A DNA stretch of 47,708 nt from Pseudomonadota bacterium (GTDB taxonomy: Bacteria; Bdellovibrionota; FAC87; UBA2466), in assembly GCA_043718025.1 (NCBI GenBank), contig JAYSWN010000194.1:1-47708 (forward strand), read 5' to 3'. The first letter of the stretch is position 1, and each line of letters starts with the position of its first letter. Below the pieces are notes generated by a model that was not told the origin of the DNA, ran no database searches, and saw only the letters and a list, made by a program, of their open reading frames with translations. This document shows, one piece after another, positions 5,806 to 42,553 of the stretch. Made by a program: the position numbers and the translations under genes.

Positions 5806-5973
5806 GTCTCACCAAAAGCTTAGCTTGCCACTAAGAGGCGCGAGGGTCTTCAAGTCCCCCGGGCGTGACAAATTTTCTCAAAAGTAAAACGGTGAGCGTC
5901 GTCTGACTTGGCTGTTATTGGCCTAGCGCTTGCACACTCCACCGTTTCAATACGAAAAAAGGGTAGGGGAAAA

Positions 5974-6747: not shown

Positions 6748-7119
6748 TTAGGATATTTTGGCGAAGTTCTTAAAGAATTTTTTACCTAGGGCCACAATCT
6801 GCCCCGGGGTGGGGTGATCGACCGTTTCAACGCCAACCACTTTTTTATCGATTTCAGCGTGGTGGTGCTCGGTAAGGTGGTGTTTGAACTCAGTCTTTGC
6901 CAGCCCCGGGCCCACCAATAAAATCTGATTTGCCGCCTTAAGGTGAACAATCACTTCGTCAAAGAACCCTCTCTCGTCTTTGTGCTTGTTTCGCTCTTTT
7001 TCCACGTCTCCATGTTTACGCACTTCATGGCGAACCAGCTTGTGTTCGTCAGTGTGGTCGGGATGAAGCTCAAAAATATTGGCGTGGGCGTGGTCAATAA
7101 AAACAACAAAGTTTGCCAT
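6748..7119 (-). CDS. eRF1 domain-2-like / host-attachment family protein
   Basis: VVFIDHAHA, ILLVGPGLAKTEF and VETVDHPT motifs; no GGQ. Confidence 0.75.
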   Translation of the reverse strand: MANFVVFIDHAHANIFELHPDHTDEHKLVRHEVRKHGDVEKERNKHKDERGFFDEVIVHLKAANQILLVGPGLAKTEFKHHLTEHHHAEIDKKVVGVETVDHPTPGQIVALGKKFFKNFAKIS

Positions 7120-7306
7120 CGTTTAGGTCTCCGATACGGTTAGTGCCTTTAAACTAAGCGGTAAGTAGCATTATGATCGTGAAACGTCACGTTTTGGCCT
7201 GCCGGGTTGCTACCGGGGCAACCCGGCGTTATAGAACCCATTCATGTGGTTTGTGCCAAAGGTTGGGGCTTGCCTGGCCTTTTGCTTTTTCATTACGGGG
7301 TTAGCT

Positions 7307-7966
7307 GTGAAATTTGCATTAAACTTTCTATTGGTCCTTTCCTTTTTCTCTTTTTCTGCCCACGCCGACGTCCCTTCGGATGTCATTTCGGATGGTATCG
7401 AAAGCGATTTCTTTGCTTGGGAACGCTTTAACGAGGAGACCGCACAAGCTAAGGACAATTCGGTAAAGAGCCTTAACGAGGCATGCACTAAGTGGAAGAG
7501 TGAGGTTCGGCAGTCGATGGGGGCAAAGCTTCGCTACCTAGAGTGTGGCACGCGCTACGACCAAAAGGGAGGCGCCTACCTTTCAACCGGAGGGCCAGAA
7601 CTTGCGAAATATTTCATCGGCAGTTTTGCTGTTTCGGTTGGTACCATTCTCGTGAATGTGCCTAGCGGGGAGTCGCTCGTAGAGTGGAAACGGTCGATTA
7701 CGGGAGATGCGTTTAAGTTTCAAATGGGCGATTTCAGCAGCATGCTAAAGGCCTTTGGCCAAGCCAAACAGAGTTACTTAGCTAAGTGCGAAGAGTGGAA
7801 GCAAGAGGCTAAAAAACAATTTGATAGCTCTCTCGTACTCGCCTCTTGCGGTAGATTCGTCGAAGGCGACACTGTGACGCTGTCTAATCGACCTCAAGAT
7901 GCCTGGAAGTCGCGCTTTGAGTTTAGCTCGAAAGCCACGCTCTACTATTTTAGAAAAAATCCGTGA
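7307..7966 (+). CDS. secreted hypothetical protein with an internal duplication
   Basis: GTG start and signal peptide ending AHA-D; repeats ACTKWKSEVRQSMGAKLRYLECG and KCEEWKQEAKKQFDSSLVLASCG. Confidence 0.7.
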   Translation: MKFALNFLLVLSFFSFSAHADVPSDVISDGIESDFFAWERFNEETAQAKDNSVKSLNEACTKWKSEVRQSMGAKLRYLECGTRYDQKGGAYLSTGGPELAKYFIGSFAVSVGTILVNVPSGESLVEWKRSITGDAFKFQMGDFSSMLKAFGQAKQSYLAKCEEWKQEAKKQFDSSLVLASCGRFVEGDTVTLSNRPQDAWKSRFEFSSKATLYYFRKNP

Positions 7967-8017
7967 GTTGGTGGTTTTAGGCACGGCGTATGCATCGCCG
8001 ACCTTATATGAGGAGCG

Positions 8018-8497
8018 ATGCGCATGTTTAATTTTTTTAGTAAGACCGACCAACAGCTTCAACACGATGTGATCAACGAACTAAGCGGCGATCCCCGAAT
8101 CACCGAAAATAAAATTGCTGTTTCTGCCAGTGATGGGGTCATCACTTTGCGCGGAACGGCTCCTCACTATTTTGAAAAGGTGGCCGCTGAGCAGGCCGCC
8201 CGTAGAGTGGGCGGGGTGCGGGCGGTGGTTGATGTGATTGAAGTGAAGCTGTTGGACTCATGTCGGCGTAATGATGACGACATCGCTCGCGCCGCACGAT
8301 TGGTGCTTGGCTGGCACTACGCACTATCCGATGGAATAAAAGTTACCGTAAATGACGGATGGGTTTCGCTAAACGGCGAGGTCTACTGGGAATACGAACG
8401 GCTTGCGGCGTACGATGCCGTTAGCGCGCTCATGGGAGTGCGCGGCGTCACCAACGGAATTACCCTCATACCCAAGATCGTCCGGGTTGCCGCCTGA
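8018..8497 (+). CDS. BON domain protein (2 BON, OsmY-like)
   Basis: DGVITLRG...VGGVRAV and DGWVSLNG...GVRGVTNGI; SD GAGGAG upstream. Confidence 0.9.
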   Translation: MRMFNFFSKTDQQLQHDVINELSGDPRITENKIAVSASDGVITLRGTAPHYFEKVAAEQAARRVGGVRAVVDVIEVKLLDSCRRNDDDIARAARLVLGWHYALSDGIKVTVNDGWVSLNGEVYWEYERLAAYDAVSALMGVRGVTNGITLIPKIVRVAA

Positions 8498-8579
8498 GGC
8501 TACAATCGTGGGGGCAAATTTTTATCCGTCTTGATAACTAATAAAAGATTCAGCGCGGTAAATCAGTTATTCTCTACCC

Positions 8580-8945
8580 ATGAATGCTGAATATTTTCCG
8601 GGCCCGCTGTTCTATTTGCTAATTCATTGGGTGGTTTCGGCCGCGGCCCTCGTGGTCACCGCCTATGTGGTTCCAGGATTTCGGGTTAAGAATTTTGGCT
8701 CTGCCCTTTTTGCTGCCGCGGTGCTTGCGCTCATCAACACAACCATTCGTCCGTTACTGCTTTTTCTAGCGCTTCCCTTTACGATTCTCACGCTGGGTTT
8801 GTTTATCTTTGTGGTCGACGCCGCGCTGCTGAAATTGGGTTCGGCTCTGATGAAAAATTTTAAGGTGGAAAGTTGGTTCGCCGCGATTTTAGGGGCCTTG
8901 GTACTGTGGGTAGTGAGTAGCGTTTTGCATCAGTTGGTGATTTAA
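8580..8945 (+). CDS. 4-TM phage-holin superfamily IV / YvlD-like membrane protein
   Basis: VPGFRV...IRPLLLFLALPFTILTLGLFIFVV signature. Confidence 0.85.
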   Translation: MNAEYFPGPLFYLLIHWVVSAAALVVTAYVVPGFRVKNFGSALFAAAVLALINTTIRPLLLFLALPFTILTLGLFIFVVDAALLKLGSALMKNFKVESWFAAILGALVLWVVSSVLHQLVI

Positions 8946-8967: not shown

Positions 8968-10578
8968 ATGAAACGTCTGGTTGCGTGGTCGTTTGCTCTG
9001 TTACCGCTCTGCTTTATCGTCACCTGCTCGCTCAATGCATTTCGTCCGCTGGTTACGGTGCAGGTAAAATTACCTGTTTCTGCTTCGCGGACGGTCCGCG
9101 CGGGTCGGGCCCCTACGTTGCCAAAGTGCGTGGCGTTTAGCTTTACCGCTCCGGCGCTGGCCAATTCACTTTCGAGCGGTGAATTGCAAGGTTACTCCCC
9201 CACTTGCCTAAAATTGGTTGGGCTCGTCTCTTCTGCGGCGGCCGTGGGCACGGTGACCACCACCGGGGTAAGTTTAACCCTGCCCGCCGGTCAATATACG
9301 GTTACGCCAATTGGCATTGAAACCACCGCTGAGTGCAGTGATTTAACCAAAATTTTTGCGTCCGGCGTTCCCGAAGTTTACACGATGGGAGTTGCCACCA
9401 GCTTTGATACTGCGCAACGCGAGCACCGGGCGGTTTCTAATTATGATCCACTAACCGCCACCAATCTCGCCGCCGGCTGTGTGCCCGGTAGCTCCATTAA
9501 TGCAATTGCCGCGGGGGGCAAAACAACCTGCGCGGCGGTTGGGGGTGCTGCGAAATGCTGGGGGAACAATGAGTTCGGGCAACTTGGCAACAATTCCGGA
9601 GCAAGCTCACCTTCGCCTGTACCGGTCGTCGGTTTAACCTCGGGGGTTACGTCTTTAGCAACCGGTTCTTACGTTGGACACAGCTGCGCAGCTCACAACG
9701 GCGCGGCCAAGTGTTGGGGGGCTAACGGTAAAGGGCAACTGGGTATTGGCGAAATCTCCACCGTGCGGCTTACCCCGGTTCAGGTGCAGGGTCTCACCGC
9801 CAATGTCACTAGCGTGGTGGTGGGTTCTTTCGCCGGCCATTCGTGCGCCATTCAAAATGGGGCAGCTTACTGTTGGGGGGAAGGCGCCTTGGGGCAGCTT
9901 GGAGTCGGTGCCGGCGCCGACTCAAATATTCCAATCGCAGTTATTAACTTTGCATCTCAGGTCACCGCACTGCTAACAGGTTCTCAATATGGGCATACTT
10001 GTGGGGTTCAGAACCGCATTGCTTATTGTTGGGGAAGCAACGTGGCTGGGCAATTGGGTGATGGTTCGAACGTCGCCGCTTTTTCCCCAATTGCCGTAAA
10101 TGGACTGATGTCGGATGTGATTGGAGCGGCGAGTGGGTCAGGCTCGGCGCATTCCTGCGTAATTATGGACGGCGGCTTAGCCACGTGCTGGGGCGAAAAC
10201 ACTAGCGGCCAGCTTGGTAACGGTAATAATTACAGCCTAAATTATCCATCTAACGTTACGGGTTTGAATTCCGAGGTGACGGCCATGGCCTTAGGTTCGC
10301 GCGGTTTTACGTGCGCTATTCACCAGGGCGCCGCCAAGTGCTGGGGTGCCAACTCCTATGGCCAGCTGGGAAATAACTCGGGGGTCAATTCAAACCTAGC
10401 GGTTCAGGTGATTGGCCTCACTTCCGGAGTCACCGCGATTACGGCCGGTGAAGATCACGCCTGCGCCGTTCATAACGGCGCACTCAAGTGCTGGGGCGCC
10501 AATGACTTCGGGCAGCTCGGCGATGGCACTACGAACGGTTCGTCAATCCCAGTTTTAGTGACCGGCCTCAATCGGTAG
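8968..10578 (+). CDS. lipoprotein with an unnamed N-terminal domain and a 7-repeat RCC1/BLIP-II beta-propeller
   Basis: Seven CWG repeats (consensus CWGxNxxGQLG); signal ending IVT-C. Confidence 0.88.
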   Translation: MKRLVAWSFALLPLCFIVTCSLNAFRPLVTVQVKLPVSASRTVRAGRAPTLPKCVAFSFTAPALANSLSSGELQGYSPTCLKLVGLVSSAAAVGTVTTTGVSLTLPAGQYTVTPIGIETTAECSDLTKIFASGVPEVYTMGVATSFDTAQREHRAVSNYDPLTATNLAAGCVPGSSINAIAAGGKTTCAAVGGAAKCWGNNEFGQLGNNSGASSPSPVPVVGLTSGVTSLATGSYVGHSCAAHNGAAKCWGANGKGQLGIGEISTVRLTPVQVQGLTANVTSVVVGSFAGHSCAIQNGAAYCWGEGALGQLGVGAGADSNIPIAVINFASQVTALLTGSQYGHTCGVQNRIAYCWGSNVAGQLGDGSNVAAFSPIAVNGLMSDVIGAASGSGSAHSCVIMDGGLATCWGENTSGQLGNGNNYSLNYPSNVTGLNSEVTAMALGSRGFTCAIHQGAAKCWGANSYGQLGNNSGVNSNLAVQVIGLTSGVTAITAGEDHACAVHNGALKCWGANDFGQLGDGTTNGSSIPVLVTGLNR

Positions 10579-10583
10579 TGCCA

Positions 10584-11408
10584 TCAAAAATCAAAGTTGA
10601 GCTGGTCTTGCCTTTCGCCCACCGCTCTTTCCGTAGCGCCGTGCAACGTCATTATGTCGGTAGCCGCCTCGCGGCTGGTGACCTGAATGGAAAGTTTTTT
10701 TCCTAAAACTTTTCGGTGCAGCGCAAGCGCTTTGCGGGGCGAATTATTTTTGTCGGAAAGGTGCGCCAAGCTCAACCATTGCAGTCTATCGGTGGCGCTG
10801 TTTTCCACCAGCTCCGCCGCCTCACGGTTTGAAATGTGGCCGCGAGATCCGCTAATCCGTTCTTTGAGTCTGGCCGGGTAAGGGCCGCGGGCCAGCATGT
10901 CAGGATCGTAATTGCTCTCGAGAAATAGGCCGTCTACGCTTTTGACCACGCTCTTTAAGTCGTCAAACACATGGCCTACGTCGGTACAAATCGCCAACCG
11001 CTGAGTGCCATCATCCACCACAAAGACAACGCCATCCGCTGCGTCGTGCGGAGTGCGAATGGTTTCTACGGTAAGGTGCTGCACTTTCACCGATTGCCCC
11101 GAGCGAAAAGTTTGCAGATCAATGTTTTTAGTAGAGTGGATTGCCCGGCGCGACGCGTAGAGCGTGGGCTCAGTAATAAACAGCGGCACCTTAAATTTTC
11201 GAGCGTAAACACCGGCGCAGCGAACGTGATCGTAGTGGTCATGCGAAATAAAAAGGGCGTCGGCGCCATCGGCACTGCGGCCGTAGGTGGCCAGCCGTTC
11301 GGTCACCCTCAAGGCGCTAAGGCCGGCGTCAAATAGCAGGCGAACCCCTTGGCTTTCTACGTAAATGCAGTTGCCGCTGCTGCCCGATTGAAGTGAGATC
11401 AAAATCAT
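10584..11408 (-). CDS. MBL-fold metallo-hydrolase (YycJ/WalJ/PhnP-like)
   Basis: SGSSGN, HDHYDH, LESNYD, GHISN and AHLS. Confidence 0.9.
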   Translation of the reverse strand: MILISLQSGSSGNCIYVESQGVRLLFDAGLSALRVTERLATYGRSADGADALFISHDHYDHVRCAGVYARKFKVPLFITEPTLYASRRAIHSTKNIDLQTFRSGQSVKVQHLTVETIRTPHDAADGVVFVVDDGTQRLAICTDVGHVFDDLKSVVKSVDGLFLESNYDPDMLARGPYPARLKERISGSRGHISNREAAELVENSATDRLQWLSLAHLSDKNNSPRKALALHRKVLGKKLSIQVTSREAATDIMTLHGATERAVGERQDQLNFDF

Positions 11409-11462
11409 TGGATCGTAAGATTACTTTCAGCGAGTTTGCAGAACAAAGGCAAGCCCGTGCGC

Positions 11463-12206
11463 CTACTTTTGCGATCGCCGCGCCGACTCATACATGAGCA
11501 CCGCGGCCGATACGCTTACGTTGAGCGATTCAATTTTACCCAGCATGGGAATGCGCACGCGCACATCGCATTCCGCCGCCAAGCTTTGGCTAATGCCATC
11601 GCCCTCGGCCCCCAGCACAAAAAACACCTTTTCAAAGTCGGGCATCTTCGCAAGATCGGTAGAATCAGCGGCCAACATGGTGGCTACACTCCAAAATCCT
11701 TCTTCCTTTAACTTTCGAACGGCATCCTTCAAATTAGAAACGCGCACGATTGGCACCGTCTCCACGGCCCCTACCGAGGCTTGGTAAACTGCCGGAGTGA
11801 CGGCCACCGAACGCTCTTTGGGAATCAAAATCGCCGAGGCACCAAACGCTTCGGCCGATCGGCAAATGGCGCCAAAATTCTGGGGGTCTTGTAAATGATC
11901 AAGCCCCAGCACTACCGCGCGTTTCTGTTTATGCAGTTTGGGCAAAAGGGCGGCGAGCTCGGTGTACTCAAATTTTTTAACCCAGCCTTTGGCGCCACCG
12001 GCCTCGTTGGGAAGGCGATCGAAATCAACCTTTATTCCGTTTGCCGCGGCCACCTGCGCTAGGCGCGCCGCTCGACTTCCTCGGTCACCGCTTTTGACGA
12101 TTGTCAGCCGAATGATGCGGTCGGGGCGGTGTTGCGCAATGTGCTCCAGCGCCGACAACGAGGTGACGGCGGTGACGTCAATTTCACCCCTTTCTGCCTT
12201 GCTCAT
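11463..12206 (-). CDS. rlmB: 23S rRNA Gm2251 2'-O-methyltransferase (TrmH/SpoU family)
   Basis: LQDPQNFGAICRSA, GAEGDG and IPMLGKIESLNVS. Confidence 0.88.
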   Translation of the reverse strand: MSKAERGEIDVTAVTSLSALEHIAQHRPDRIIRLTIVKSGDRGSRAARLAQVAAANGIKVDFDRLPNEAGGAKGWVKKFEYTELAALLPKLHKQKRAVVLGLDHLQDPQNFGAICRSAEAFGASAILIPKERSVAVTPAVYQASVGAVETVPIVRVSNLKDAVRKLKEEGFWSVATMLAADSTDLAKMPDFEKVFFVLGAEGDGISQSLAAECDVRVRIPMLGKIESLNVSVSAAVLMYESARRSQK

Positions 12207-12892
12207 CCGAGAAGCTGCTCAACCGCGGCGCGAGGTTCGCGTGCATTTAAGATGGGCCGGCCAACGATCAGGTAGTCGGCTCCCCACTCAAGGGCCTGCT
12301 TGGGGGTGGCGACGCGCGCTTGATCTTCTTCCTCAATAGCCTTGCCGGCGGGGCGAATACCGGCCACCGCAAATTGAAAGCCGGCTACCGTATTTGGTTT
12401 CACGGTTTTTAATTCGTTGGGTGAACACAATATCCCCGACAAGCGGCTTTCGATCGCAATTTGTGCCAGCCTCTCCACCGTGACTTGATGAGACTCTTGG
12501 TGACCAAAAGTCTCCATGTCCATTTCCGCCATGGAGGTGATCAGCGTAATACCAAACAGGCGAACATTGGTTCCGCGGCAGCCCCGGCCCGCGGCCTCAA
12601 GCATTTTGCGGCCGCCGATGCAATGTACCGTGGCGCAGTCAACGCCCAAGTCACCGTAGCTTCGCACCGTACGGTAAACGACGTTAGGGATGTCTAAGAT
12701 CTTTAAGTCTAAAAAAATCTTTTTGCGCCGTTTGTGAAGGTGGCGAATCAACTCGACCCCTTCCTGCGCGTAACTCATCGGCCCTAGCTTGTACCATTCG
12801 ACCAGGTCGCCCAATTCATCGACCAAACGAAAAGCTTTTTCGTGGTTTTCGTAGTCGAGAGCTACGATCAGTTTGTCTTTAATGGATTGCAC
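12203..12892 (-). CDS. pyrF: orotidine-5'-phosphate decarboxylase
   Basis: IVALD, DLKILDIPN, DQARV and IVGRPI; 4-bp overlap with rlmB. Confidence 0.9.
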   Translation of the reverse strand: MQSIKDKLIVALDYENHEKAFRLVDELGDLVEWYKLGPMSYAQEGVELIRHLHKRRKKIFLDLKILDIPNVVYRTVRSYGDLGVDCATVHCIGGRKMLEAAGRGCRGTNVRLFGITLITSMAEMDMETFGHQESHQVTVERLAQIAIESRLSGILCSPNELKTVKPNTVAGFQFAVAGIRPAGKAIEEEDQARVATPKQALEWGADYLIVGRPILNAREPRAAVEQLLG

Positions 12893-12893
12893 G

Positions 12894-13931
12894 TCAGTTT
12901 ACTCCCACTCGTTTGGCCAGCACTTCACTTTCGGTCAAAGTGCGTGCCGCCGAAAAAACAAAGGCGCCATCGGAACTTTGGCCAGCAAATTTGTCTTTGG
13001 GGCCAATCTCAACTTTGCTGTAATACGCGATGAGCCCCGCCACCCACTCTTTTGCTTCGGGGGTGGTGTCGCCGAAGAGGCCCGCCTTTGGGCCGCGCCC
13101 GTCAATCATTTCGATAAAAATACCGCCGGCCTCCAGCGCCTTTTCTTGGAGGGTCGTGTTTTCGGTATGATTGCGTCCCAGACTCACTCTGGTTTTTGCC
13201 GAGATCCGGAAGTAGCGACCAAGGCCTAAGATTGCACTCTGTTTCACTTTTTGAATTTCGTTTTGAAAGGTGGGCTGATCAAAAAAGTCTTTGAGCCGTT
13301 TAGAAAAATTGGCGTCGGTGAGCAGGCAGCCGCCACCGGGCGAGGCGTACTCTTCAATCCCAAGGCTCTTGGCCAGGGCAATCTGTTCGCTGCGCCCACG
13401 ACCACTTATCTTTAAGAACGCATCGCGCTTTACCCAACCCTCTTTTTCCGGAATGGTTTCGTCGAGCCGACCGGCCGAAAGCGGGCGCACCACTAACCCT
13501 TCGACCGGGCTTTGGTGATCGATCATCGTAAACGCGTGCCGGTGTTGCGACATCGGCCGTTGGCCCAGCACTTCGCCCGTAACCAAAAAATCAGCGCCCA
13601 ATTCATGGCGAACCACATCGGCAAGTTGAAACATGAAGACGCGGCAATCGATGCACGGATTCATATTTTTGCCGTAACCAAACCGGGGATTTTCAACTAG
13701 GTCTAAATAAGCGGGCCCTTTTTCTTTAAAGATGAGTTCAATACCAACCGCATCGGCCGCTTTTTGTACGTCATCGCGGCAGCCGAAAGGCGAGAGCAAA
13801 TGCAGGCCGATGACCTCAATGCCTTGGTCTTTCACCATGAGCGCGGCAAGTTGGCTATCAAGTCCGCCCGAAATCAGAGCGATCGCCCGGCGTCGCGGAG
13901 AAGGCGTTTGGGGAAAATTGGCGCTGTTCAT
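12894..13931 (-). CDS. PP-loop tRNA sulfurtransferase-like protein (ThiI/MnmA-like, DUF814-type)
   Basis: SGGLDS, NPCIDCR, GEVLGQRPMSQ and GGGCLLT. Confidence 0.8.
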   Translation of the reverse strand: MNSANFPQTPSPRRRAIALISGGLDSQLAALMVKDQGIEVIGLHLLSPFGCRDDVQKAADAVGIELIFKEKGPAYLDLVENPRFGYGKNMNPCIDCRVFMFQLADVVRHELGADFLVTGEVLGQRPMSQHRHAFTMIDHQSPVEGLVVRPLSAGRLDETIPEKEGWVKRDAFLKISGRGRSEQIALAKSLGIEEYASPGGGCLLTDANFSKRLKDFFDQPTFQNEIQKVKQSAILGLGRYFRISAKTRVSLGRNHTENTTLQEKALEAGGIFIEMIDGRGPKAGLFGDTTPEAKEWVAGLIAYYSKVEIGPKDKFAGQSSDGAFVFSAARTLTESEVLAKRVGVN

Positions 13932-14174
13932 TTACCCAGAGTCATACTTGGGTTCCCTTGTCATATCAACGACTTCTGATCTTAAGGGCGAAAGTGTATA
14001 CCGCGTAAACACGCTAAGTCCATGAAACCAAGCGGTTAGTTGTGGTTTCGTAAAAACGGCTGCCCAAAGCTTGGGCGACGGTCAGGCTCGTGACCGGTGT
14101 AAACCCGCCAGAAAAGTGGGCACCGCGTTTGCAAACTTTAATAGTCAGGAGAGGTGTCGGGCGACGCCTTCAAC

Positions 14175-14693
14175 ATGATTATGAACACCAAGAATTTTCT
14201 CATCGCGATGCTACTTTTCTTAAGCCTTGCGGCCCAAGCCGAGAACCGGCCTACTTCGGGCAATCCGCTCCAATTTATTTCAGACTTGGGCCCCCCGGCA
14301 TTTAGCAACGCGGGTGGCGTGTTCTTACCTCTTTCAGTCGTCGACGGATTGAAACAGGGTTCAGTTTCTCCAATCATGCAATTTGTTTTGGTTCAGCACA
14401 CCATTAATTCGTGCACCAAAAACGTACTTTCGAAAACCCCGGGGATTCGCGATCCCTATACGGTGGCCTTGGCCACGTTTCAGTGGGGTGTTTGCTTTAT
14501 GACCTCGTGTTTAAAAAACGTTTTGCTTCTGCAAATGATTCCTCTGCTCTCCCAAAACTACGGTGACGCCACCGATCAGGCTTCGGCAAAGCAACAAGGC
14601 CTAGTGATGGCTCAGGCGTTTCAACGGCAAGAAGGCTGCGGCGCGCAGGGCGACGCCGGGATTGACCCCGCTATCCTCCAAGCCTTTCAATAA
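14175..14693 (+). CDS. secreted hypothetical protein
   Basis: Signal peptide ending AQA; four Cys. Confidence 0.65.
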   Translation: MIMNTKNFLIAMLLFLSLAAQAENRPTSGNPLQFISDLGPPAFSNAGGVFLPLSVVDGLKQGSVSPIMQFVLVQHTINSCTKNVLSKTPGIRDPYTVALATFQWGVCFMTSCLKNVLLLQMIPLLSQNYGDATDQASAKQQGLVMAQAFQRQEGCGAQGDAGIDPAILQAFQ

Positions 14694-14801
14694 ACGCAAA
14701 TTAATGCAGTAAGCCACCTACGTGGTAGCGGCTTGGCAAGCGCATGAACTTGCGCGCTGCGTGGTGAGCCAAGTTGTGGGATAATCGCGGGAAAGTAACC
14801 C

Positions 14802-15377
14802 ATGCAAAACCCACTCACCAAATTTCCTATTCAGGCGGGAATGCTTTCCTTTATGCTTCCCGGTTTGGGCCAGGTGTACCAGCGCCGTTTTGTCTGGGCG
14901 TTTCCTTTCTTCATTGCCCATGTCACCGCGCTTTCCTTTGCCAACTACCGGGTTTGGATTTTTGTACCGATGGTGATTTCGGCCTGGGACGCGCAACGCC
15001 AGCCAAACCAAAAGGCGGTGGAGTGGAACACGCGTACTTTCACCTATTTGGTGGCCGGGGGGATCGCTTTCTTTTCGGCATTTTCGCTCATGATCGATCG
15101 GGTGTTGCCTTTTCCGGCAATTGGAAAAATGACGGCCGTCGCCGACTTGCTGAGTGATCAAATTATTTCTTGCGCATTGGTGCGGGGAACCATGCCCAGC
15201 GCATTGGCACAATGTCCGGAAGTGGAAGCCAAATGGCGAAAAGATCCGTGGGGCACGCCGTTTCGATACGTGATTGTGGCTACCGGTTTTGAAATTCGCT
15301 CGGCTGGCCGTGACGGGCTGGATCAGACTGACGACGATTTTATATTCCACTTTCGGACACCGAGGTTCGAAAAATGA
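14802..15377 (+). CDS. membrane protein with a C-terminal T2SS GspG-like pseudopilin head domain
   Basis: KDPWGTPFRY...RSAGRDGLDQTDDD; N-terminal PGLGQVY TM region; no class III signal. Confidence 0.7.
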   Translation: MQNPLTKFPIQAGMLSFMLPGLGQVYQRRFVWAFPFFIAHVTALSFANYRVWIFVPMVISAWDAQRQPNQKAVEWNTRTFTYLVAGGIAFFSAFSLMIDRVLPFPAIGKMTAVADLLSDQIISCALVRGTMPSALAQCPEVEAKWRKDPWGTPFRYVIVATGFEIRSAGRDGLDQTDDDFIFHFRTPRFEK

Positions 15378-15419
15378 AGCGGTTTTTTGCTTTCTGGGGA
15401 AAAGAGTGAGGGGTAACTG

Positions 15420-16691
15420 ATGCCTAAAAGTGGCTACCTAACTATCGTTATCCTCGCGGGGCTGCTCTCCACGACGTGGTTAACCAATGGCATTTTGGCC
15501 CGTCAGCCGGACTTTATTTACCTTCCGCTCGCACTGCGTTTTTTATTCGGGGCCGCCACTCTATTTTTTCTGCCGCTAATCTTTTTAAAACGTTTGCCAC
15601 AAAGCTCTCTTCGCCTTCTGCACGCCGCCCTTTCGGTTTCAAGTCTCACGTATTTTTTGGCGCCTTTACTCCTGCAAATGTCGCTCGCCACGTTGCCCTC
15701 TGGTTTTGTGGGGTTGGCATTTTGCACGATTCCGATTTGGCTCACCATTGTGGTGAAGGGGTTTAGCAGCGAAAAATTTGCCGACTATTTTTTGGTGATA
15801 TTGGGGCTCGTCGTTGCCATGGTGGGCTGTTGGACCATTGCCGCGGACCGGGGAAACCCGCTAATGGCGTTGTTGTTTTTGACCTTGGCCTGCACTTTCC
15901 AGGTTTTTGGTATTTGGCTAAGCCGCCGTCTGTTTTGGCTACACTCGGCCCTTGATCTCAATTTTTGGGCAATGGTTTTAGCCGGCCTAGCGCACTTACT
16001 TTTGTCGTTAATTCAGGGGGAAGTGGTATCGGCCCGCTTTTATCTGCTACGTCCCGAAGTGGCGGTGCTTATTCTGTGGACCGGTTTCATTGGTACCGGC
16101 GTGTCCGCCTACCTATATCGGGTTGAGTCGATGACCCGCAACACGTTGGTGCTGCTCACCTTGCTGGTGCCAGCATTAAGCTTAATTCTTGGTTCTCTCG
16201 CGCTCGAAGAAACCCCGCTCAATATATTTACCGGTTCGGGCCTATTGATGGTTTTGTTTGTGTTAGGCAAAGAGTCGTTGCGGGGGATTCCCGCTTACTG
16301 GATGACGTTGCTGCTCAACAATGATCGGCGCCACGGCGATCGTCTCGTATGCTTACTCGACGGTTACTTGAAGCGACCAGGGGATACTCAACCGGCCCGG
16401 GTGCAAGTGATTAACCTCTCGATTGGCGGTATTGGCTTTCGCATGGACCGCGAACTGCCGGCGGGGGAGCGCATTATTCTTACTCTACCCATGGGACAAA
16501 ATTGGACTTCATTTACGCTAGAAGGCCGTATTGCCCACATTGAAAAAAGGGGGGTGAAAGATTTCCCCTTCTCGGGCGGAATTGAGTTTCAGAACCTAGC
16601 GGGATTCCGCCTGCAGTGCGTGGTGGAATTTCTGGCGCGCGTCTCCCGGGCCGAGGATGAGAGCGTTGGCATGTTTCAAAATCAAGAGTAG
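15420..16691 (+). CDS. EamA/DMT transporter fused to a PilZ domain
   Basis: About 10 TM with an LRF motif; C-terminal RHGDR (RxxxR) and NLSIGG. Confidence 0.85.
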   Translation: MPKSGYLTIVILAGLLSTTWLTNGILARQPDFIYLPLALRFLFGAATLFFLPLIFLKRLPQSSLRLLHAALSVSSLTYFLAPLLLQMSLATLPSGFVGLAFCTIPIWLTIVVKGFSSEKFADYFLVILGLVVAMVGCWTIAADRGNPLMALLFLTLACTFQVFGIWLSRRLFWLHSALDLNFWAMVLAGLAHLLLSLIQGEVVSARFYLLRPEVAVLILWTGFIGTGVSAYLYRVESMTRNTLVLLTLLVPALSLILGSLALEETPLNIFTGSGLLMVLFVLGKESLRGIPAYWMTLLLNNDRRHGDRLVCLLDGYLKRPGDTQPARVQVINLSIGGIGFRMDRELPAGERIILTLPMGQNWTSFTLEGRIAHIEKRGVKDFPFSGGIEFQNLAGFRLQCVVEFLARVSRAEDESVGMFQNQE

Positions 16692-17225
16692 CTACTTTTT
16701 GGGCCAGCCCTTGATATCCTTTGGTAGCGCGATCCATTTTTTTTCAACGCCGCAGTCGAGCATTGTGGTGCCCATGTAAGCGTTGGCCATCTCTTCGTCT
16801 TTCGGCTGCGTCCAAAAACCCTTTACCATCGGACAGTAGTAGAGTTTCCAGTCGGCGGTGAGGATAGCGTCTTCGCGAATTAATTCCATCAATCCGGCCT
16901 GAAGTTCAGCCACCATCGCGCGCCACTCCTTTTCCGTCTGCTTTTTCACCAAATACCCGAGCCCCTTTTCCAGGCGTTTTACTGAAAGAATTTGTTTGTG
17001 TTCGGGATTTTCCTTCAGCCATTCTGCCGTCGTCTTGAGGGCGTCGGAGGCGCTATTTTGCATTTCGTTAAATTTGTCGAACGCCAGGGCCGTCGAGGTG
17101 GCGTGTGCTTTTTCTATGACGCTTTTGAGCGCCACCGGCTCGGCTCGGGCAACGCCAGAAAATATTTCAATTGTCGATGCGATGAGTATGGCCAAGAAGC
17201 GCGAGGTACGTTTAGTTAGAATCAT
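16692..17225 (-). CDS. secreted DUF3347-like putative metal-binding protein
   Basis: YYCPM...WTQ...NAYMGTTMLDCG; start ATG at 17225 after GGAG. Confidence 0.75.
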   Translation of the reverse strand: MILTKRTSRFLAILIASTIEIFSGVARAEPVALKSVIEKAHATSTALAFDKFNEMQNSASDALKTTAEWLKENPEHKQILSVKRLEKGLGYLVKKQTEKEWRAMVAELQAGLMELIREDAILTADWKLYYCPMVKGFWTQPKDEEMANAYMGTTMLDCGVEKKWIALPKDIKGWPKK

Positions 17226-17288
17226 GTTGTCTCCTAGAGCGAAAGTTAACTTGAAGACCCCTTGAGGGTGCACTAGTTTAGCGGCGCT

Positions 17289-17843
17289 ATGCGATGCGCG
17301 ACACTCTTGATTATTCTTTTTGAATTGGCAAGCCCGAGGGGCCAAAATGCCCACGCGGCGGCGGCTGATTTCGTACGCCTCAACCTCATTGATTTCTCAA
17401 TCAAAATGCAGTTACCGCCAGACGCTGCGAAAGAATGCGTTCTCTTGAAGAGCACGGCCGAGGCCCTCTCTCGAGCCCAACAGGCAGCCAAATTGGTGGG
17501 GCATTCCCTCAAAGTACTCAGCTGCTATCGCCCCTTTTCCTCGACCCCCAAAATCGATGAAAATCTGCGGCGCGACTGGGCCCGCGGCAATACGGTAGAG
17601 GTGATTCTCACTGAGTCTGGCGGAGGGCCGGTGGCGCTTCCCGAGCCCCATGATCACGCCATTATGCTTTCGGCCAAGCAGTATAAAAAAGTGGAAGCCA
17701 AAAAGAATGTAGCTAAGCTTAATGCGCTGATGAATGCCGAGGGATTTGCGCCCGATCCCAAGGTGTGGTGGCGGTTTAGTTGGCTAAAAGCGGCCCAATC
17801 AGCGATCGAAGATTTTGCACCCGACTCTTTGCCCAAACGTTGA
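17289..17843 (+). CDS. VanX/DdpX (M15D) D-Ala-D-Ala dipeptidase homologue with lost zinc ligands
   Basis: LKVLSCYRP, WARGNTVEV and MNAEGF...VWWRF align with the family scaffold. Confidence 0.7.
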   Translation: MRCATLLIILFELASPRGQNAHAAAADFVRLNLIDFSIKMQLPPDAAKECVLLKSTAEALSRAQQAAKLVGHSLKVLSCYRPFSSTPKIDENLRRDWARGNTVEVILTESGGGPVALPEPHDHAIMLSAKQYKKVEAKKNVAKLNALMNAEGFAPDPKVWWRFSWLKAAQSAIEDFAPDSLPKR

Positions 17844-17906
17844 TTCCTAACTCAAATTCAATAAACTTCTCAATCGCTTCGGTTTGGGCGACAATCACCT
17901 AACATC

Positions 17907-19199
17907 GTGAATTGCTCAGCGCGCCATTTTAATTCTGCCGCCATCCTCTTTATAGTTATCGTGGTTTTTTTTCCGTGCCTAATGATGGCCGAAGAGGCAA
18001 AGACCAGCGAAGCCGTACCCCGAACCAATCGCAAAAAGAGCGGGGGCATGGGCAATGAAATAATCAGGGTGGGCGAGCAGGTGGCAAACCGAATCGACCG
18101 CATTGTAAAAAAGAAGACCTTCGAGTTGTGGGGTGACCCGTGGCAGATGCAGGGGCTGCCGCTTATCTTTCCGAGCAGCACCAGCGGTTTTAACCTAGGC
18201 CTAAAACTGGCGTTGCAAAACGTGATTCGTCAGGACCCGCATCAGTTGGAGCTTGAGGCGCAGATTCTCACCAGCGATCGCGGAAGGTATAAACACTTTT
18301 TTAGGTTCGACGCGCCGCACGCCTTTAAAGATCGCCTGCGGCTCACGTTTCGCTTTGGCTACGATCGCGACATTGCCTTGCCGTATTTCGGTCTGGGCAA
18401 CGAGACCTCGATCGACTGGAATGCCTATAATAACGACAATCCCCTCTACCAAAACGTTCGAGTGGGTCCGAGTGTGGATCTGCAGGCGCTTTACCGCTTC
18501 GCCGACTTTTGGCGCGTTGGTCCGGTGGTTCATCTACGCTGGACCGACGTCACGGCGCCAATCACGAGTTTGCTAACTACTGAACAGCCGGTTGGTACCA
18601 ACGGCGGGCGAACGCATGGCGTTGGCTTGGCATTGGTTCGCGATCAGTTGGATTGGGAGCCTTATCCCTCGCGCGGGAGTTACCATGAACTCATGTTTCT
18701 TACCCATGGGCCATTTACGGGCAGTAATTTCAATTTTAATCGGGGCACCTACACCTACAAGCGCTTCTTCTTAATCCATCGCCGACTAATTTTCGCTCAC
18801 CGCACGCTGTTCGAATTTCTAGATGGCGAGGTTCCTTTTTTCGAAATGAGTTCAGTGGGCGGCATTAGCCCGTCGCTGGCCTTCGGCGGCGAGCGGTTTC
18901 TGCGTGGATTTGAAGGGGCCCAATTTTTAGACAAAATTCGTGTCGCCATGGGCTTTGAGCTGCGTTGGGACCCTTTGTTTTTTGCCTTCGCCAAGCAGGA
19001 TATAACGATGGGTTTTGTGCCGTGGGTGGACTTGGCCCGGGTGTGGCCCAGTGTTTTTCCCCTGCGTTTGGGTGGCTGGCACGTGGCCGGGGGCTGGGGC
19101 GTTCGGCTGATCTGGAACAGCCGTCTGGTTATCCGCGGTGATCTTTCGTTTTCTTCCAACGGCATGGACTTCTTAGTGACCTTGGGCAATGCATTTTAA
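17907..19199 (+). CDS. Omp85/BamA-TamA family outer membrane barrel without an obvious POTRA domain
   Basis: YFGLGN, YPSRG, FLRGF, GWGVR and a C-terminal Phe. Confidence 0.8.
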   Translation: MNCSARHFNSAAILFIVIVVFFPCLMMAEEAKTSEAVPRTNRKKSGGMGNEIIRVGEQVANRIDRIVKKKTFELWGDPWQMQGLPLIFPSSTSGFNLGLKLALQNVIRQDPHQLELEAQILTSDRGRYKHFFRFDAPHAFKDRLRLTFRFGYDRDIALPYFGLGNETSIDWNAYNNDNPLYQNVRVGPSVDLQALYRFADFWRVGPVVHLRWTDVTAPITSLLTTEQPVGTNGGRTHGVGLALVRDQLDWEPYPSRGSYHELMFLTHGPFTGSNFNFNRGTYTYKRFFLIHRRLIFAHRTLFEFLDGEVPFFEMSSVGGISPSLAFGGERFLRGFEGAQFLDKIRVAMGFELRWDPLFFAFAKQDITMGFVPWVDLARVWPSVFPLRLGGWHVAGGWGVRLIWNSRLVIRGDLSFSSNGMDFLVTLGNAF

Positions 19200-19221
19200 C
19201 TCAATCAATGCAATGTCGTGC

Positions 19222-19264
19222 CTACTAAATAATTAGTAGACACCTACTAATTATTTAGTAGAAT
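19222..19264 (+). promoter_or_regulatory. twin palindromic operators over the sigma70-like promoter of blaI
   Basis: CTACTAA-N4-TTAGTAG at 19222-19239 and 19244-19261; -35 TAGACA 19237-19242, -10 TAGAAT 19259-19264. Confidence 0.85.
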
Positions 19265-19283
19265 GAAGTGATTGGGGGCATTT

Positions 19284-19673
19284 ATGACGAAGAAAAGCAC
19301 TCTGGCTAAACCGCTGACGCCGGTTGAGCTAGAGATCATGACGGTGGTTTGGACGCTGGGGGCTACGACCGTAAAAGAAGTTCAAAACGCGCTGCCAAAA
19401 GATCGCGGTCTGGCCTACACCACGGTGGCCACGATGATGAAGATTCTCGAAGGCAAGAAGATCGTAAAAAGTAAAAAGACCGACAAGGCCCACGTTTTTA
19501 CACCGCTGTTAACTCGCGAAGACTATGGCCAGGCTAGCCTTAAGGCTTTGGCCTGCGGTGTCTTTAAACAAAACCCCACCTGGCTGGTAAAACAGTTGCT
19601 CGAAAAAACGGACCTTAGCGAAGCCGAGCTAAAGGAGATTCGCCAATTGGTGAACGAAAGGCTTAGCGAATGA
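19284..19673 (+). CDS. BlaI/MecI/CopY family transcriptional repressor
   Basis: LTPVELEIMTVVW, LAYTTVATMMKILEGK and LSEAELKEIRQL. Confidence 0.92.
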   Translation: MTKKSTLAKPLTPVELEIMTVVWTLGATTVKEVQNALPKDRGLAYTTVATMMKILEGKKIVKSKKTDKAHVFTPLLTREDYGQASLKALACGVFKQNPTWLVKQLLEKTDLSEAELKEIRQLVNERLSE

Positions 19674-21259
19674 CGGCGCTCACTTTTCTCTCAAAATTTC
19701 TGCAGGCCAACCTGTTGATTGCCCTGGGCGCCACGGTGGCCTTGAGTTTTTCAGCGGTCAACGGCAAACGGCGAGGCCTTTCGTTTCGTAGCGAGCTTGG
19801 GCTTCATTACGGTTTGATCGCTTGGCTTCTGGCCACCTTTTTTATTTCCGCCTGGCTTCCGCGCAGTCAACCCTGGCTACCGAAGGCTCAAGTTTGGGCC
19901 GCGGCTACGTCTACAGACTGGACAGGGGAAAAAGTACCTACCGCCAATCAGCTCGTGGTTTCGGTGGACGAGCACGCTTCATGGCGAGCACCGAATGAAG
20001 CTCCACGCCTAATTTTTGGTTTGATCGCGGCGGTATTAATTTGGGGCCTGCTGATGCTCTTACGCGATAGCTGGCGAATGTTTGTTTTGCGACAAAACAG
20101 TGTGTCCATACGTCATATAGGGCGATTACGAATTCTGGCGGTGGGTGGCGGGGGCAGTCCGTTTTCATTTTCTGATCTTTTTGGCTCCTGGATTGTGCTG
20201 CCCGAAACCATTTTGAGTGACCACGCCTTAAGGAGGGTTTCACTACTTCACGAATTTCAGCACCTGCGTCATCACGACACCGTGGCGGTTTACGGTCTGG
20301 CATTTTTGCGTTGGGTGTTTTTTCTCAATCCGTTCTTTGCCATATGGCACCGACGGATTTTGGAGCTGCAAGAGTTTGCTTGTGACGAAACCCTGGTTGA
20401 CCAACGAGGCGTTTCGGCAAAGGCAATGGGTGGCTGCCTGTTAAGGGTGGCCGAATTGAGTGTGCCTGGAATCCATAGTCCGGTCTGCGCAACCGGAATG
20501 TGCTTTTCAGGCCGCTCTTCTTTAAAAAGGAGAATCATCAAAATGTCGAAAATTGATAAAAGGCAGTTTAACCGGCTTGGGCTGTGGTTTGGCTCGGCGC
20601 TGGCGTTAGTCCTGGGGGGAGCCACGGCGTGGGCCTCGCAGGAATTGGTGCAGGATCGCCGAATCACTCTCGAAGAGGCGCAAGGATTAAAGCGCTTCTC
20701 CGAAAGTGATTTTCCCTTGGCGATTAATGAGCTGGTAGTGAAAGAGCTTAATGTTTACGTGGGCACGCCCGACGGACGAAAGTTTGTGCGCGAGAGCCTT
20801 ATTCGCATGCGCACATTCAAGAAACCGGTGCTCGATAAAATGGAAACCTATTCGGCGCCGATGGATTTATTGGCGGTGCCGTTGGTTGAATCGGGTTTTC
20901 AAAACCTAACTCAAGAAAACAACCCGGTGAAAGGGGCCGGGCTGTGGCAGTTTATTCCCACCACGGCGCGCAACTACGGGTTAAAGGTAAACCCTCAGGA
21001 AGATCAGCGGCTGGATGTTGAGCTGGAAACCGACGCGGCGATGCGCTACCTGCTGTCGAATCGCTTACGTTTCAAAAGCTGGGAATTGGCGCTCTTGGCC
21101 TATAACTCGGGCGAAGGGGCCGTGCAAAAAGCCATTGATAAATTCAAGACCCGCGATGCGTGGGAGCTGGCCCGAAAGGGAGCGGAAGTGTATCCGCGGT
21201 ACCTGGCCAAAGTGGTAGCGGTGGCGTTGATTCTCAGAAACCAAAATCTGGTGGATTGA
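19670..21259 (+). CDS. BlaR1-type M56 metallopeptidase fused to an SLT/MltD-like lytic transglycosylase
   Basis: HEFQH, QEFACD and LKRRI; C-terminal VESGF, AGLWQFIPTTA and AYNSGEG. ATGA overlap with blaI. Confidence 0.9.
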   Translation: MTALTFLSKFLQANLLIALGATVALSFSAVNGKRRGLSFRSELGLHYGLIAWLLATFFISAWLPRSQPWLPKAQVWAAATSTDWTGEKVPTANQLVVSVDEHASWRAPNEAPRLIFGLIAAVLIWGLLMLLRDSWRMFVLRQNSVSIRHIGRLRILAVGGGGSPFSFSDLFGSWIVLPETILSDHALRRVSLLHEFQHLRHHDTVAVYGLAFLRWVFFLNPFFAIWHRRILELQEFACDETLVDQRGVSAKAMGGCLLRVAELSVPGIHSPVCATGMCFSGRSSLKRRIIKMSKIDKRQFNRLGLWFGSALALVLGGATAWASQELVQDRRITLEEAQGLKRFSESDFPLAINELVVKELNVYVGTPDGRKFVRESLIRMRTFKKPVLDKMETYSAPMDLLAVPLVESGFQNLTQENNPVKGAGLWQFIPTTARNYGLKVNPQEDQRLDVELETDAAMRYLLSNRLRFKSWELALLAYNSGEGAVQKAIDKFKTRDAWELARKGAEVYPRYLAKVVAVALILRNQNLVD

Positions 21260-21285
21260 GAACGCCGCGGTTATTGCGCAGCCCG

Positions 21286-21344
21286 AGGCCGAAGCAACCC
21301 TCTCTCGCCTTTTGGTAGTCGAGCGGCAAAAGTTGCTTCGGCCT
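21286..21344. terminator. inverted repeat between convergent genes, possible terminator
   Basis: AGGCCGAAGCAAC (21286-21298) and GTTGCTTCGGCCT (21332-21344). Confidence 0.5.
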
Positions 21345-22416
21345 ATTCAGCGCGAACGATTATGCTGTTTAAATTGAAGGTTCCGCATTGAGTACCATTG
21401 CCAAAACCGCTGGTTCTAAAGCTGACTAATAGGTTGCCGTCCGCTTGCAGAAAGTCAGAGAGGCTCCCTCCTCCTGAGCTACTGACCGAGTATCCTTGGC
21501 CGCCGGACAACGAGTTTGGTATCCCTACAATCCAGCTAAATCCTGTCCGTTTAAAGGCCCTAATTTGAAACGCGGGGCCCAAATTTGAAAGGTATGTACA
21601 GAGACCTTCGCCGTCTTCCGGGGTAATGCCAGACTTTCCGTAGGCTTCCACTTTAAGGGAGTTGTAAGCGTTTAGATTGGCCGGCGGGGTAAAAATGCCG
21701 TCCAATCGCATGTGATTTATTCCAAGCCCGGTTGAATTCAGCTCATGCGCTCCGATCAGGCTCGAAATTTCCGACATCGTAGATCCGGTCACATTCACCG
21801 GAGGAATTCCGGCTTCCCCAAAAGTAAAGGAGAGGGAAGAGCTACCTGAAACTCCCGAGAAGCCTAAGTACGCACTTTTCAGCGTAAAATCTCCAGGGGC
21901 GGGGGCAGGGCACGCCTGCAACCTGTCACCGCTGTTGGAATCGAATTCAGAGGTGAGTGACACTTTTCCAGAGGCGGTATCGGCCGTACCCCGGGCAACA
22001 AAGTACTCGGCCGGAATGGTTGCCTGATTAAACAAAGCCGCCAAAGTGGTTTGGCCGGAGGGCGGAGTGTCAAACCCGACGATGGTAAACCGAAAAGTGC
22101 CGGTGGGTAGGTTGATTGAAAAACCGCTTTCGGTTAGTTGCTTATAGCTGACGGGATAAGTCACCTGCCCATCGAGATAAAGGCATTGTACATTTCGCCC
22201 TTTTACGGTGGCCGAATCGACCGTAGGCGCCACATTCCCCGTGGCAATCACCGCAAAACTAAAATTACTCAATTCGGGCGGTCTAGAAGGGAGGCCATTT
22301 AGGCTATCAGAGTTAGCAAGGTGGATTCGAAGCGCAGGCCGGAAGGTGTTTAAGCTGCAGCGAGCTAAAAAAAATCCGGTGCTACTGACTAAGAACAGGA
22401 CAACCCAGGCCTTCAT
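21343..22416 (-). CDS. lipoprotein sharing its N-terminal domain with the RCC1 protein; Ser/Gly-rich beta C-terminal domain
   Basis: Signal MKAWVV...LAR-CSLNTFRP. Confidence 0.75.
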   Translation of the reverse strand: MKAWVVLFLVSSTGFFLARCSLNTFRPALRIHLANSDSLNGLPSRPPELSNFSFAVIATGNVAPTVDSATVKGRNVQCLYLDGQVTYPVSYKQLTESGFSINLPTGTFRFTIVGFDTPPSGQTTLAALFNQATIPAEYFVARGTADTASGKVSLTSEFDSNSGDRLQACPAPAPGDFTLKSAYLGFSGVSGSSSLSFTFGEAGIPPVNVTGSTMSEISSLIGAHELNSTGLGINHMRLDGIFTPPANLNAYNSLKVEAYGKSGITPEDGEGLCTYLSNLGPAFQIRAFKRTGFSWIVGIPNSLSGGQGYSVSSSGGGSLSDFLQADGNLLVSFRTSGFGNGTQCGTFNLNSIIVRAE

Positions 22417-38168: not shown

Positions 38169-38189
38169 TTTGTTAGTTCCCTGATTTCC

Positions 38190-38303
38190 AAAGGTGCCCA
38201 TCTACTTTTCAGCTGAAAAGGTCGCGGGTGCATCTCACAGTTTTGCACCTGGCACCTTTTCAGCTGAAAAGTAGATGGGCACCTTTTTGGGCACCTTTTT
38301 GGG
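38190..38303. repeat. REP/MITE-like element with 33-bp perfect inverted repeats
   Basis: 38190-38222 is the exact reverse complement of 38254-38286; each arm holds the palindrome CTTTTCAGCTGAAAAG; tandem GGGCACCTTTTT x2 at the right end. Confidence 0.85.
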
Positions 38304-42519: not shown

Positions 42520-42553
42520 AGAAGAGTGGGGCCTTTTATGCCCCACCCTTCTT
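42519..42553. terminator. probable bidirectional terminator
   Basis: AAGAAG-a-GTGGGGC-loop-GCCCCAC-c-CTTCTT between convergent genes. Confidence 0.7.

Follow-up and report, generated by a model that had tools for sequence, protein, structure and literature searches.

The DNA stretch analysed here (the window: 47,708 nucleotides, positions 1 to 47,708 of contig JAYSWN010000194.1 in assembly GCA_043718025.1, from a member of the phylum Bdellovibrionota) encodes two lipoproteins that share an N-terminal domain and carry different C-terminal cargo: P0001, from the open reading frame (ORF) starting at 8968 on the plus strand, and P0002, from the ORF starting at 22416 on the minus strand. Judged from sequence, the domain is the base of an unnamed, phylum-wide lipoprotein family with many different tips. 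Genes for its members recur beside genes for a FecR-domain protein and for a barrel protein with tetratricopeptide repeats (TPRs), and the C-terminal tail of the FecR protein resembles the domain's first strand. We propose a strand exchange like that of type V pili, in which the domain would be the acceptor and a FecR tether would be held by the barrel; we regard this proposal as evenly balanced between right and wrong.

The shared domain and its cargo

To establish how P0001 and P0002 are related, we compared them by pairwise alignment. An initial annotation, made from the window's letters, had placed ORFs at both starts, quoted five motif pairs common to the two proteins and assigned them a shared domain of about 150 residues at about 9025-9480 and 21910-22359. 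Both ORFs exist, every one of the motif pairs is found in both translations, and the bounds agree with Cys20-Cys171 in P0001 (9025..9480, plus strand) and Cys20-Cys169 in P0002 (21910..22359, minus strand). The relationship itself is significant: BLASTP gives 48 identities over 163 residues (29%, E 1e-11), confined to residues 16-173, and the local score of 147 compares with a mean of 45, a standard deviation of 7 and a maximum of 88 in 2000 shuffles.

Beyond the domain the two proteins are different, as the annotation had said. P0001 (8968..10578, plus strand; 536 amino acids) consists of a signal peptide, Cys20, the shared domain and, after its last Cys, a seven-blade RCC1 propeller (9490..10575, plus strand) recognized by Pfam RCC1 repeats and seven [CW]WG blade motifs. 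P0002 (21343..22416, minus strand; 357 amino acids, or 366 in its database form, which begins at the upstream ATG 22443) has a signal peptide, Cys20, the shared domain and an unnamed beta-rich cargo (21346..21891, minus strand). This cargo has no match in Pfam or among the sequences of the PDB, and in the Atlas it meets only unnamed clusters at 0.9 or above; it falls in cluster K0, which with 27 of 141 is the most frequent cargo type among the matches listed. The annotation had also called both lipoboxes atypical. The residue at position -1 is Thr in P0001 and Arg in P0002; of the 130 lipoprotein signals that a heuristic identifies in the genome, 1 and 4 have these residues. Among 119 homologues it is Ser in 34, Gly in 32, Ala in 22, Thr in 13, Arg in 11 and another residue in 7. 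On these sequences the unusual residue is a property of P0001 and P0002 and not a family trait, the family being mostly canonical.

The domain extends well beyond the window. An iterated profile places it in 13 ORFs of the window's own genome (labelled G000; 92% complete), one of them cut by a contig end. With a single query it was found in 3 of 3 same-genus genomes and in 0 of 27 others; in a census of 301 Bdellovibrionota genomes, profile A1 found it in 51, profile A3 in 117 and the two together in 118. A library search returned 403 representatives at E 0.001, of which the 150 listed are used in the homologue analyses below. Homologue searches by word index had little sensitivity (5 and 3 matches), and a single-protein scan of the genome collection returned only the query's own locus. 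In all 150 listed homologues the domain starts within 70 residues of the N-terminus, right behind the lipoprotein Cys, and in none is it internal or repeated in tandem; the lipoprotein Cys is conserved in every aligned row (55 of 55 in one alignment, 119 of 119 in the other).

What follows the domain varies greatly. Cargo of at least 80 residues is present in 141 of the 150, falling into 30 BLAST clusters. Pfam names propellers (RCC1, Kelch, DUF5122, SBBP, NHL and lactonase-like) as well as LamG, IPT/TIG, He_PIG, Big_7, FN3, Calx-beta, GLUG, DUF1554 and Ig domains; many cargos have no Pfam match, and the largest, with IPT/TIG and Ig stalks, reach 2000 residues. In a quick tree built from 113 domains (partial and cargo-less ones, 37 of the 150, being excluded), the cargo types group together and are nevertheless swapped: K0, the type of P0002, needs 10 changes, two of them forced by starred branches, and one starred clade of five rows holds four cargo types. 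The annotation's idea of modular proteins, with a constant N-terminal domain and exchangeable tips, is thus borne out, and sequence searches give the domain no name: Pfam gives no match, no NCBIfam family is found in more than one of 28 members, the lone match among PDB sequences has an E of 0.06, and the Atlas offers unnamed clusters at 0.90-0.93, one of them mostly Myxococcota, with named leads only at 0.8. The tips are likely sticky, and a role in adhesion or prey recognition may be presumed.

Several individual members deserve mention. A cargo-less member of 191 residues (L068:2891-3463, on G169:C1) ends just past the last Cys and lies within an operon of barrel and FecR genes. At L070:5355-5357 and L071:3534-3536 an in-frame stop (TGA and TAG, respectively) ends the domain ORF and a long open frame follows directly, which after the L071 stop encodes RCC1/TIG; each could be a split gene, an error or readthrough. 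Paralogues with related cargo stand two or three in tandem on G000:C2 and at L074, L077, L078, L079, L081 and L072, as would be expected if genes had duplicated locally and their tips had then diverged. In genomes scored as lacking the domain, small Cys lipoproteins directly follow the FecR gene (L154:9194-9757; L155:3704-4288 and 6959-8908; L164:8928-9800). At several loci with a barrel and no detected domain, Cys lipoproteins beside the FecR gene have weak scores against the domain profile (E 4e-5 to 0.1), which suggests that the family is wider than counted.

Fold, partner genes and the FecR tail

To obtain a fold for the domain, we modelled that of P0002 with AlphaFold2 on alignment A2 (55 rows). 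The model is a seven-strand beta-sandwich (pLDDT 89) in which the loop after strand A has the lowest confidence (63); strand A covers about residues 28-35 in P0001 (9049-9072, plus strand) and residues 28-34 in P0002 (minus strand). In an alignment of 119 rows (117 of 150 full-length listed matches plus P0001 and P0002), the Cys in strand B and that in the loop after strand E are both present in 87 rows, both absent in 30 and single in 2; the Cys78/Cys169 pair is complete in 114, absent in 3 and single in 2. Cross pairs of these columns show no association, and related rows inflate the covariation P values. This pattern indicates that the domain probably has two disulfides, in keeping with the annotation's call for a conserved one. 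P0001 has both pairs (54/123 and 80/171) and P0002 has one (78/169).

Structure comparison points weakly towards type V pilins, whose N-terminal domain is a transthyretin-like beta-sandwich. The first four Foldseek ranks are the Bacteroides adhesins 3gf8, 4qdg (twice) and 3pay, with a best E of 6.7e-3, and 3t2l, 4dgu, 3up6, 4h40 and 5cag follow lower down; all of these we take to be type V pilin structures. In VIA-align, the pilin-type matches span Z 4.5-5.8, with 4qdg at 5.8 (rmsd 4.5, 106 residues aligned) and the fimbrial anchor Mfa2 at 4.9 (4.5, 105 aligned); ExsB is best at 6.0 (3.4, 100 aligned), and DUF4876 reaches 5.7 (3.4, 88 aligned) and fibronectin III 5.5 (2.8, 77 aligned). Model residues 2-138 align with 4qdg 35-175, and residues 6-142 with Mfa2 40-183; the match therefore begins at the first strand of both. 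Because the Foldseek scores are weak and the VIA scores middling, the modelled fold suggests a kinship with type V pilins and does not establish it.

An all-against-all comparison of the neighbours of 81 domain ORFs at 63 loci showed FecR-domain proteins to be the most recurrent (8 loci), followed by TPR proteins. With wider flanks and profiles seeded from 8 (FecR) and 2 (barrel) of the domain-linked loci, 24 of 75 domain loci have a FecR gene, 24 a TPR barrel and 23 both, and in 22 of the 75 no more than 34 bp separate the FecR and domain ORFs. Conversely, 52 barrel loci have a FecR gene nearby in 48 cases and a domain gene in 34. The barrel occurs in 152 of the 301 genomes, in 109 of the 118 with the domain and 43 of the 183 others, which leaves 9 genomes with the domain only and 140 with neither. 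This conserved neighbourhood strongly supports the annotation's 'anchor or export domain'. The barrel is modelled with 14 strands (pLDDT 93) behind N-terminal TPR hits, and its best structural matches are CymA (Z 22.8) and OmpG (Z 21.2).

The trio is kept in complete genomes of family f8 (L147, L148, L167 and L168), and the L167 proteins are identical to CAE80434 (TPR), CAE80435 (FecR) and CAE80437 (891 amino acids, RCC1) of Bdellovibrio bacteriovorus. On the other side of a CHASE2 cyclase and the barrel, L167:93-2993 and L168:31-2988 encode a second lipoprotein, which is strongly diverged and matches the domain in part (943 amino acids, CAE80432). In the same genus as the window's bacterium, genome L181 has a barrel, two domain genes and a FecR gene in one cluster. 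In G000 itself a barrel-FecR pair lies on contig C224, with no domain gene adjoining, and a second barrel lies on C164.

In the linked FecR proteins an apparent non-lipoprotein signal peptide (by eye) precedes the FecR domain; after a linker of 45-204 residues, in which P/S/G/T/A/N abound, the protein closes with one strand of alternating hydrophobic residues. To compare this tail with the lipoprotein domain, we built a strand-A profile (8 columns, 108 rows). The 27 FecR tails have a median score of 5.2, as against 9.0 for native strand A, -1.8 for 2406 C-termini of the genome and 0.1 for shuffled tails, and 14 of the 27 exceed the 95th percentile of the background. As a set, the tails also match the strand-A region of their own neighbour better (13.4) than those of others (11.6; shuffled 10.9; 34 loci, permutation p 0.003, with kin that are not independent). 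In a control of five genomes with 16 FecR matches, all six barrel-linked proteins end in a linker and strand; among the ten unlinked, two are small and strandless, one has a Cys-rich tail, two are long with a strand and five are cut by the locus edge. On sequence, then, the FecR tail resembles the domain's first strand.

The loop that leads from strand A to a conserved Pro is variable, 2 to 29 residues long across the 119 rows. It contains Arg in 108 of them, at 12.4% of residues (Arg/Lys 3.8); the N-terminal linker has 7.1% Arg and five other loops have 2.2-3.3%. The Arg in the loop after strand A is usually followed by S, P, A or G. Both window proteins carry it: Arg41, Arg44 and Arg47 in P0001 (9088-9108, plus strand), and Arg45 (22284, minus strand) in P0002, within the loop of low model confidence. 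FimA, Mfa1 and BfrT are cleaved at Arg46, Arg49 and Arg43, according to PMC13655056 and 10.1101/2024.11.15.621889. By analogy, the Arg-containing loop matches the place of those cuts, and the proteins here may be cleaved there as well. Five gingipain-family (C25) domains exceed the cut-off in G000, and of the 33 genomes of the window's family, 32 have C25 proteases. Two giant frames of G000, at G000:C15:21802-28902 (minus strand, 2367 amino acids) and G000:C173:28472-38458 (plus strand, 3329 amino acids), end in a gingipain-type C25 domain and a hydrophobic anchor; similar C25-ending frames are found across the phylum.

Strand exchange weighed against the alternatives

In the proposed mechanism, the lipoprotein would be lipidated, exported to the cell surface and exposed there, and would be cut in the loop after strand A. 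Strand A would then be replaced by the C-terminal strand of the FecR-domain protein, whose linker of 45-200 residues would be threaded through the TPR/14-strand outer-membrane barrel; the head would be displayed on the FecR tether, the tether held by the barrel, and the disulfides would keep the domain together without its strand A. The P0001 and P0002 genes are orphans, which would use in trans the genome's single barrel-linked FecR protein (on C224). Strand exchange would account together for the N-terminal position of the domain, the variable loop, the disulfides, the tail and the gene linkage. The likeness to type V pili (Fim/Mfa, with the tip pilins Mfa4, BT2657 and BfrT) extends to the lipoprotein precursor, an anchor strand after the lipid Cys with an Arg-containing loop behind it, an N-terminal domain that is here modelled as a beta-sandwich, a variable, presumably adhesive C-terminal head and many paralogues per genome. 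It differs in the two disulfides of the family here and in the candidate donor, a FecR-domain protein linked to a TPR barrel.

A number of observations weigh against strand exchange. Type V pilins have two sandwich domains (NTD and CTD) with a donor groove running over both, according to PMC13655056, and the proteins here have one. A second sandwich was not found: RCC1 directly follows the domain in P0001, one member of 191 residues has no cargo, and the cargos form 30 clusters; strand exchange leaves the missing domain unexplained. It also leaves unexplained the lack of a conserved cut site outside the window's bacterial family. In those fetched loci that allowed the loop to be parsed, Arg is enriched only in that family (11.4%, with Arg in 11 of 12 proteins); in other families the loops are longer and of low complexity, with 3.2% Arg and any Arg in 32 of 55 proteins. 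In P0002, Arg45 is followed by Pro, presumably a poor site for gingipain-type proteases. Over the 301 genomes C25 is not associated with the domain (36/82/62/121, p 0.61), and we dropped its co-occurrence as phylum-wide support; together, C25 and the Arg loop in the window's family are one lineage-level coincidence, not a correlation.

The structural, tail and linkage evidence has its own counterweights. Foldseek returned nothing for the domain model at E 0.001 or below, and 4qdg is tied with ExsB, DUF4876 and fibronectin III at Z values within the tool's range for common arrangements. The strand-A profile can be matched by any amphipathic strand: the two long unlinked FecR proteins, whose strand seems to close a folded repeat, score 6.9 and 7.3, and the tails of two barrel-linked proteins of other families reach only 0.8 and 0.0. 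No family member was seen to have a donor tail borne on a linker (the family's C-termini have a median of -1.3). The linkage counts and their P values overstate the association because of the seeding of the profiles and the relatedness of the genomes, and both window genes lack a barrel and a FecR gene beside them. PF13149 and PF08842 (Mfa2/Mfa_like_1) were not found in G000 at its 92% completeness, and a Bacteroides control was positive; a classical stalk pilin was sought and not found. Finally, the CHASE2 cyclase present at 11 of the 52 barrel loci is indicative of signalling.

Unlikely, and still to be taken seriously, is an alternative in which the domain serves a Slam-like (type XI) translocon as an export handle: the barrel would flip the intact, lipid-anchored lipoprotein outward with no cleavage, and the FecR protein would act as a chaperone in the periplasm, its tail either binding transiently to the domain while this is unfolded or adding to a sheet edge. 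Slam proteins have N-terminal TPRs and a 14-strand barrel, which is the layout seen here, and Slam / DUF560 type XI systems (T11SS) likewise have genes resembling those of surface lipoproteins adjoining. The presence of the barrel in 109 of the 118 domain genomes, the service of 13 paralogues here by one or two barrels, and an Arg enrichment that is not phylum-wide also fit. SlipAM (PF04575) matches weakly in 2 of 26 barrels (best E 0.025), yet BBP2_2 matches are as frequent (3 of 26, best E 0.00039) and all are marginal; a Slam entry is absent from the barrel's top structural matches, which excludes nothing. The cargo module differs as well, being here an N-terminal sandwich and in known T11SS cargo a C-terminal 8-strand barrel, as given in 10.1101/2024.09.26.615229. 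Pfam scans of family members found no such barrel of the TbpB/lipoprotein C type, only propellers, LamG, TIG, Ig and unnamed domains. The constant FecR partner here is a further difference, FecR being absent from the main text of that cargo survey. An export handle would leave unexplained the likeness of the FecR tail to the neighbouring gene's strand A and the variable loop behind that strand.

Trans-envelope signalling like that of rhizobial NsrA-CyaK, which we think improbable as the primary function, would make the lipoprotein an exchangeable surface sensor, with the barrel and FecR protein relaying to a CHASE2 adenylate cyclase; it is compatible with strand exchange and would make adhesion secondary. 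A CHASE2 and cyclase gene lies within 4 kb at the 11 of 52 barrel loci (four seeded the profile, and some loci are cut by contig ends), in several families. In Bdellovibrio bacteriovorus bd2640 is annotated as a cyclase (PMC6717892) and may be the gene adjoining CAE80434. Clusters of CHASE2 cyclase, FecR and TPR genes are described for Campylobacterota in PMC9239204, and an action of NsrA through CyaK in PMC7529298. Sinorhizobium NsrA-CyaK and the Campylobacterota clusters share with the loci here a FecR domain, TPRs, an outer-membrane barrel and, at those 11 loci, the cyclase. The FecR protein's only plasmid matches are N-terminal FecR domains of rhizobial proteins of about 1230 residues encoded beside a cyclase; these proteins (1226-1232 amino acids), which we infer to be NsrA orthologues, match the FecR profile and are unmatched by the barrel profile. 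At all loci examined here, in contrast to NsrA-CyaK with its fusion of FecR domain and barrel in one large outer-membrane protein, FecR and barrel are separate genes, the FecR protein has a free tail strand, and a cargo lipoprotein family is attached. No cyclase is near 41 of the 52 barrel loci, a domain gene is near 34, and cargos of up to 2000 residues with IPT/TIG and Ig stalks look adhesin-like.

A generic disulfide-stabilised spacer or pilotin-like sandwich that merely lifts cargo off the membrane, with a historical linkage and a tail that completes some other fold, is very improbable: the fold's tie with ExsB, FN3 and DUF4876, the 51 of 75 domain loci without a FecR gene nearby (both window genes included) and the 43 genomes with a barrel and no detected domain would suit it, but it sits poorly with a domain that is never internal or tandem, a tight linkage in many families, complete genomes included, a cargo-less member inside an operon, and the weak domain-profile scores of FecR-adjoining lipoproteins at several barrel-only loci.

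Known systems and biological meaning

Type V pili are called unique to Bacteroidia in PMC13655056, and the family described here is in Bdellovibrionota. In the proposed scheme its members would serve as type V tip pilins do when set on their anchor, yet they cannot be counted among type V pilins for want of the second domain and of stalk and anchor pilins. The ExsB pilotin (2yjl), DUF4876 and DUF4458 are likewise lipoprotein beta-sandwiches of similar topology (Z 5.4-6.0; Atlas leads at 0.8) but have no sequence match to the domain, and ExsB has no cargo; we know of no linkage of these to FecR and barrel genes. The MAT fibres of Bdellovibrio, in the same phylum, also combine a conserved N-terminal domain with mosaic, swapped adhesive tips, but are non-lipidated trimers with another N-terminal domain, according to Caulton et al. 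2024 (PMC10769870), who also state that the surface element holding them is still to be found. A profile of seven MAT-type N-termini found none in the window's genome.

Six loci hold short members of the family (233-267 amino acids) that end in a Gly-rich beta segment of about 50 residues and lie directly upstream of MAT-like fibre genes: L176:1-699, L177:7634-8338, L178:6853-7560, L179:7699-8499, L180:7077-7778 and L076:3255-4004. One of the fibre genes has S74 and one has collagen. The short members are candidates for adapting or anchoring MAT fibres; none of this type was found in five genomes searched, G000 included, and the link to MATs is therefore not general. As a tentative larger picture, one that we think unlikely, the phylum may possess a one-subunit, type V-like organelle for surface display: exchangeable adhesin heads would be joined by strand exchange to a FecR tether running through the barrel, the tether could report prey binding to the CHASE2 cyclase, and short members would anchor MAT fibres.

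The rest of the window holds other genes. Directly 5' of the P0001 gene on the same strand are a BON-domain gene and a gene for a phage-holin-like protein with four transmembrane segments (8018-8945, plus strand). An Omp85-family protein of 430 amino acids (17907-19199, plus strand) is encoded 2 kb from the P0002 gene and does not recur at other domain loci; convergent to the P0002 gene are a penicillinase repressor and a fusion of an M56 peptidase to an SLT lytic transglycosylase (19272-21259, plus strand). At 35073-39542 (minus strand) DNA polymerase III alpha adjoins an IMS_C protein, an arrangement that we take to resemble an error-prone imuB-dnaE2 cassette. ORFs with no Pfam match at E 0.01 lie at 42552-46379 and 1140-2246 on the minus strand and at 46490-47593, 5908-6720, 7244-7966 and 14154-14693 on the plus strand, the longest encoding 1275 amino acids.

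In the full-text literature searched, which lacks most subscription papers, we found no description of the module and no article joining type V pili with Bdellovibrio or DUF560 with FecR; supplements of Bdellovibrio proteome, transcriptome and Tn-seq studies may list the genes. A three-part module of barrel, FecR-domain protein and domain lipoprotein can now be named as a candidate for the means by which predatory bacteria display proteins for prey recognition. We infer the key steps of the mechanism, which is concrete and cheaply testable; because the module is present in the genetically tractable Bdellovibrio bacteriovorus, the idea can be put to the test. If strand exchange holds true, the logic of the type V pilus would not be confined to Bacteroidia and would extend to a novel type of anchor, FecR domains would acquire a tethering function, and the heads of one lineage, at least 13 per genome, would form a catalogue of candidate determinants of prey range.

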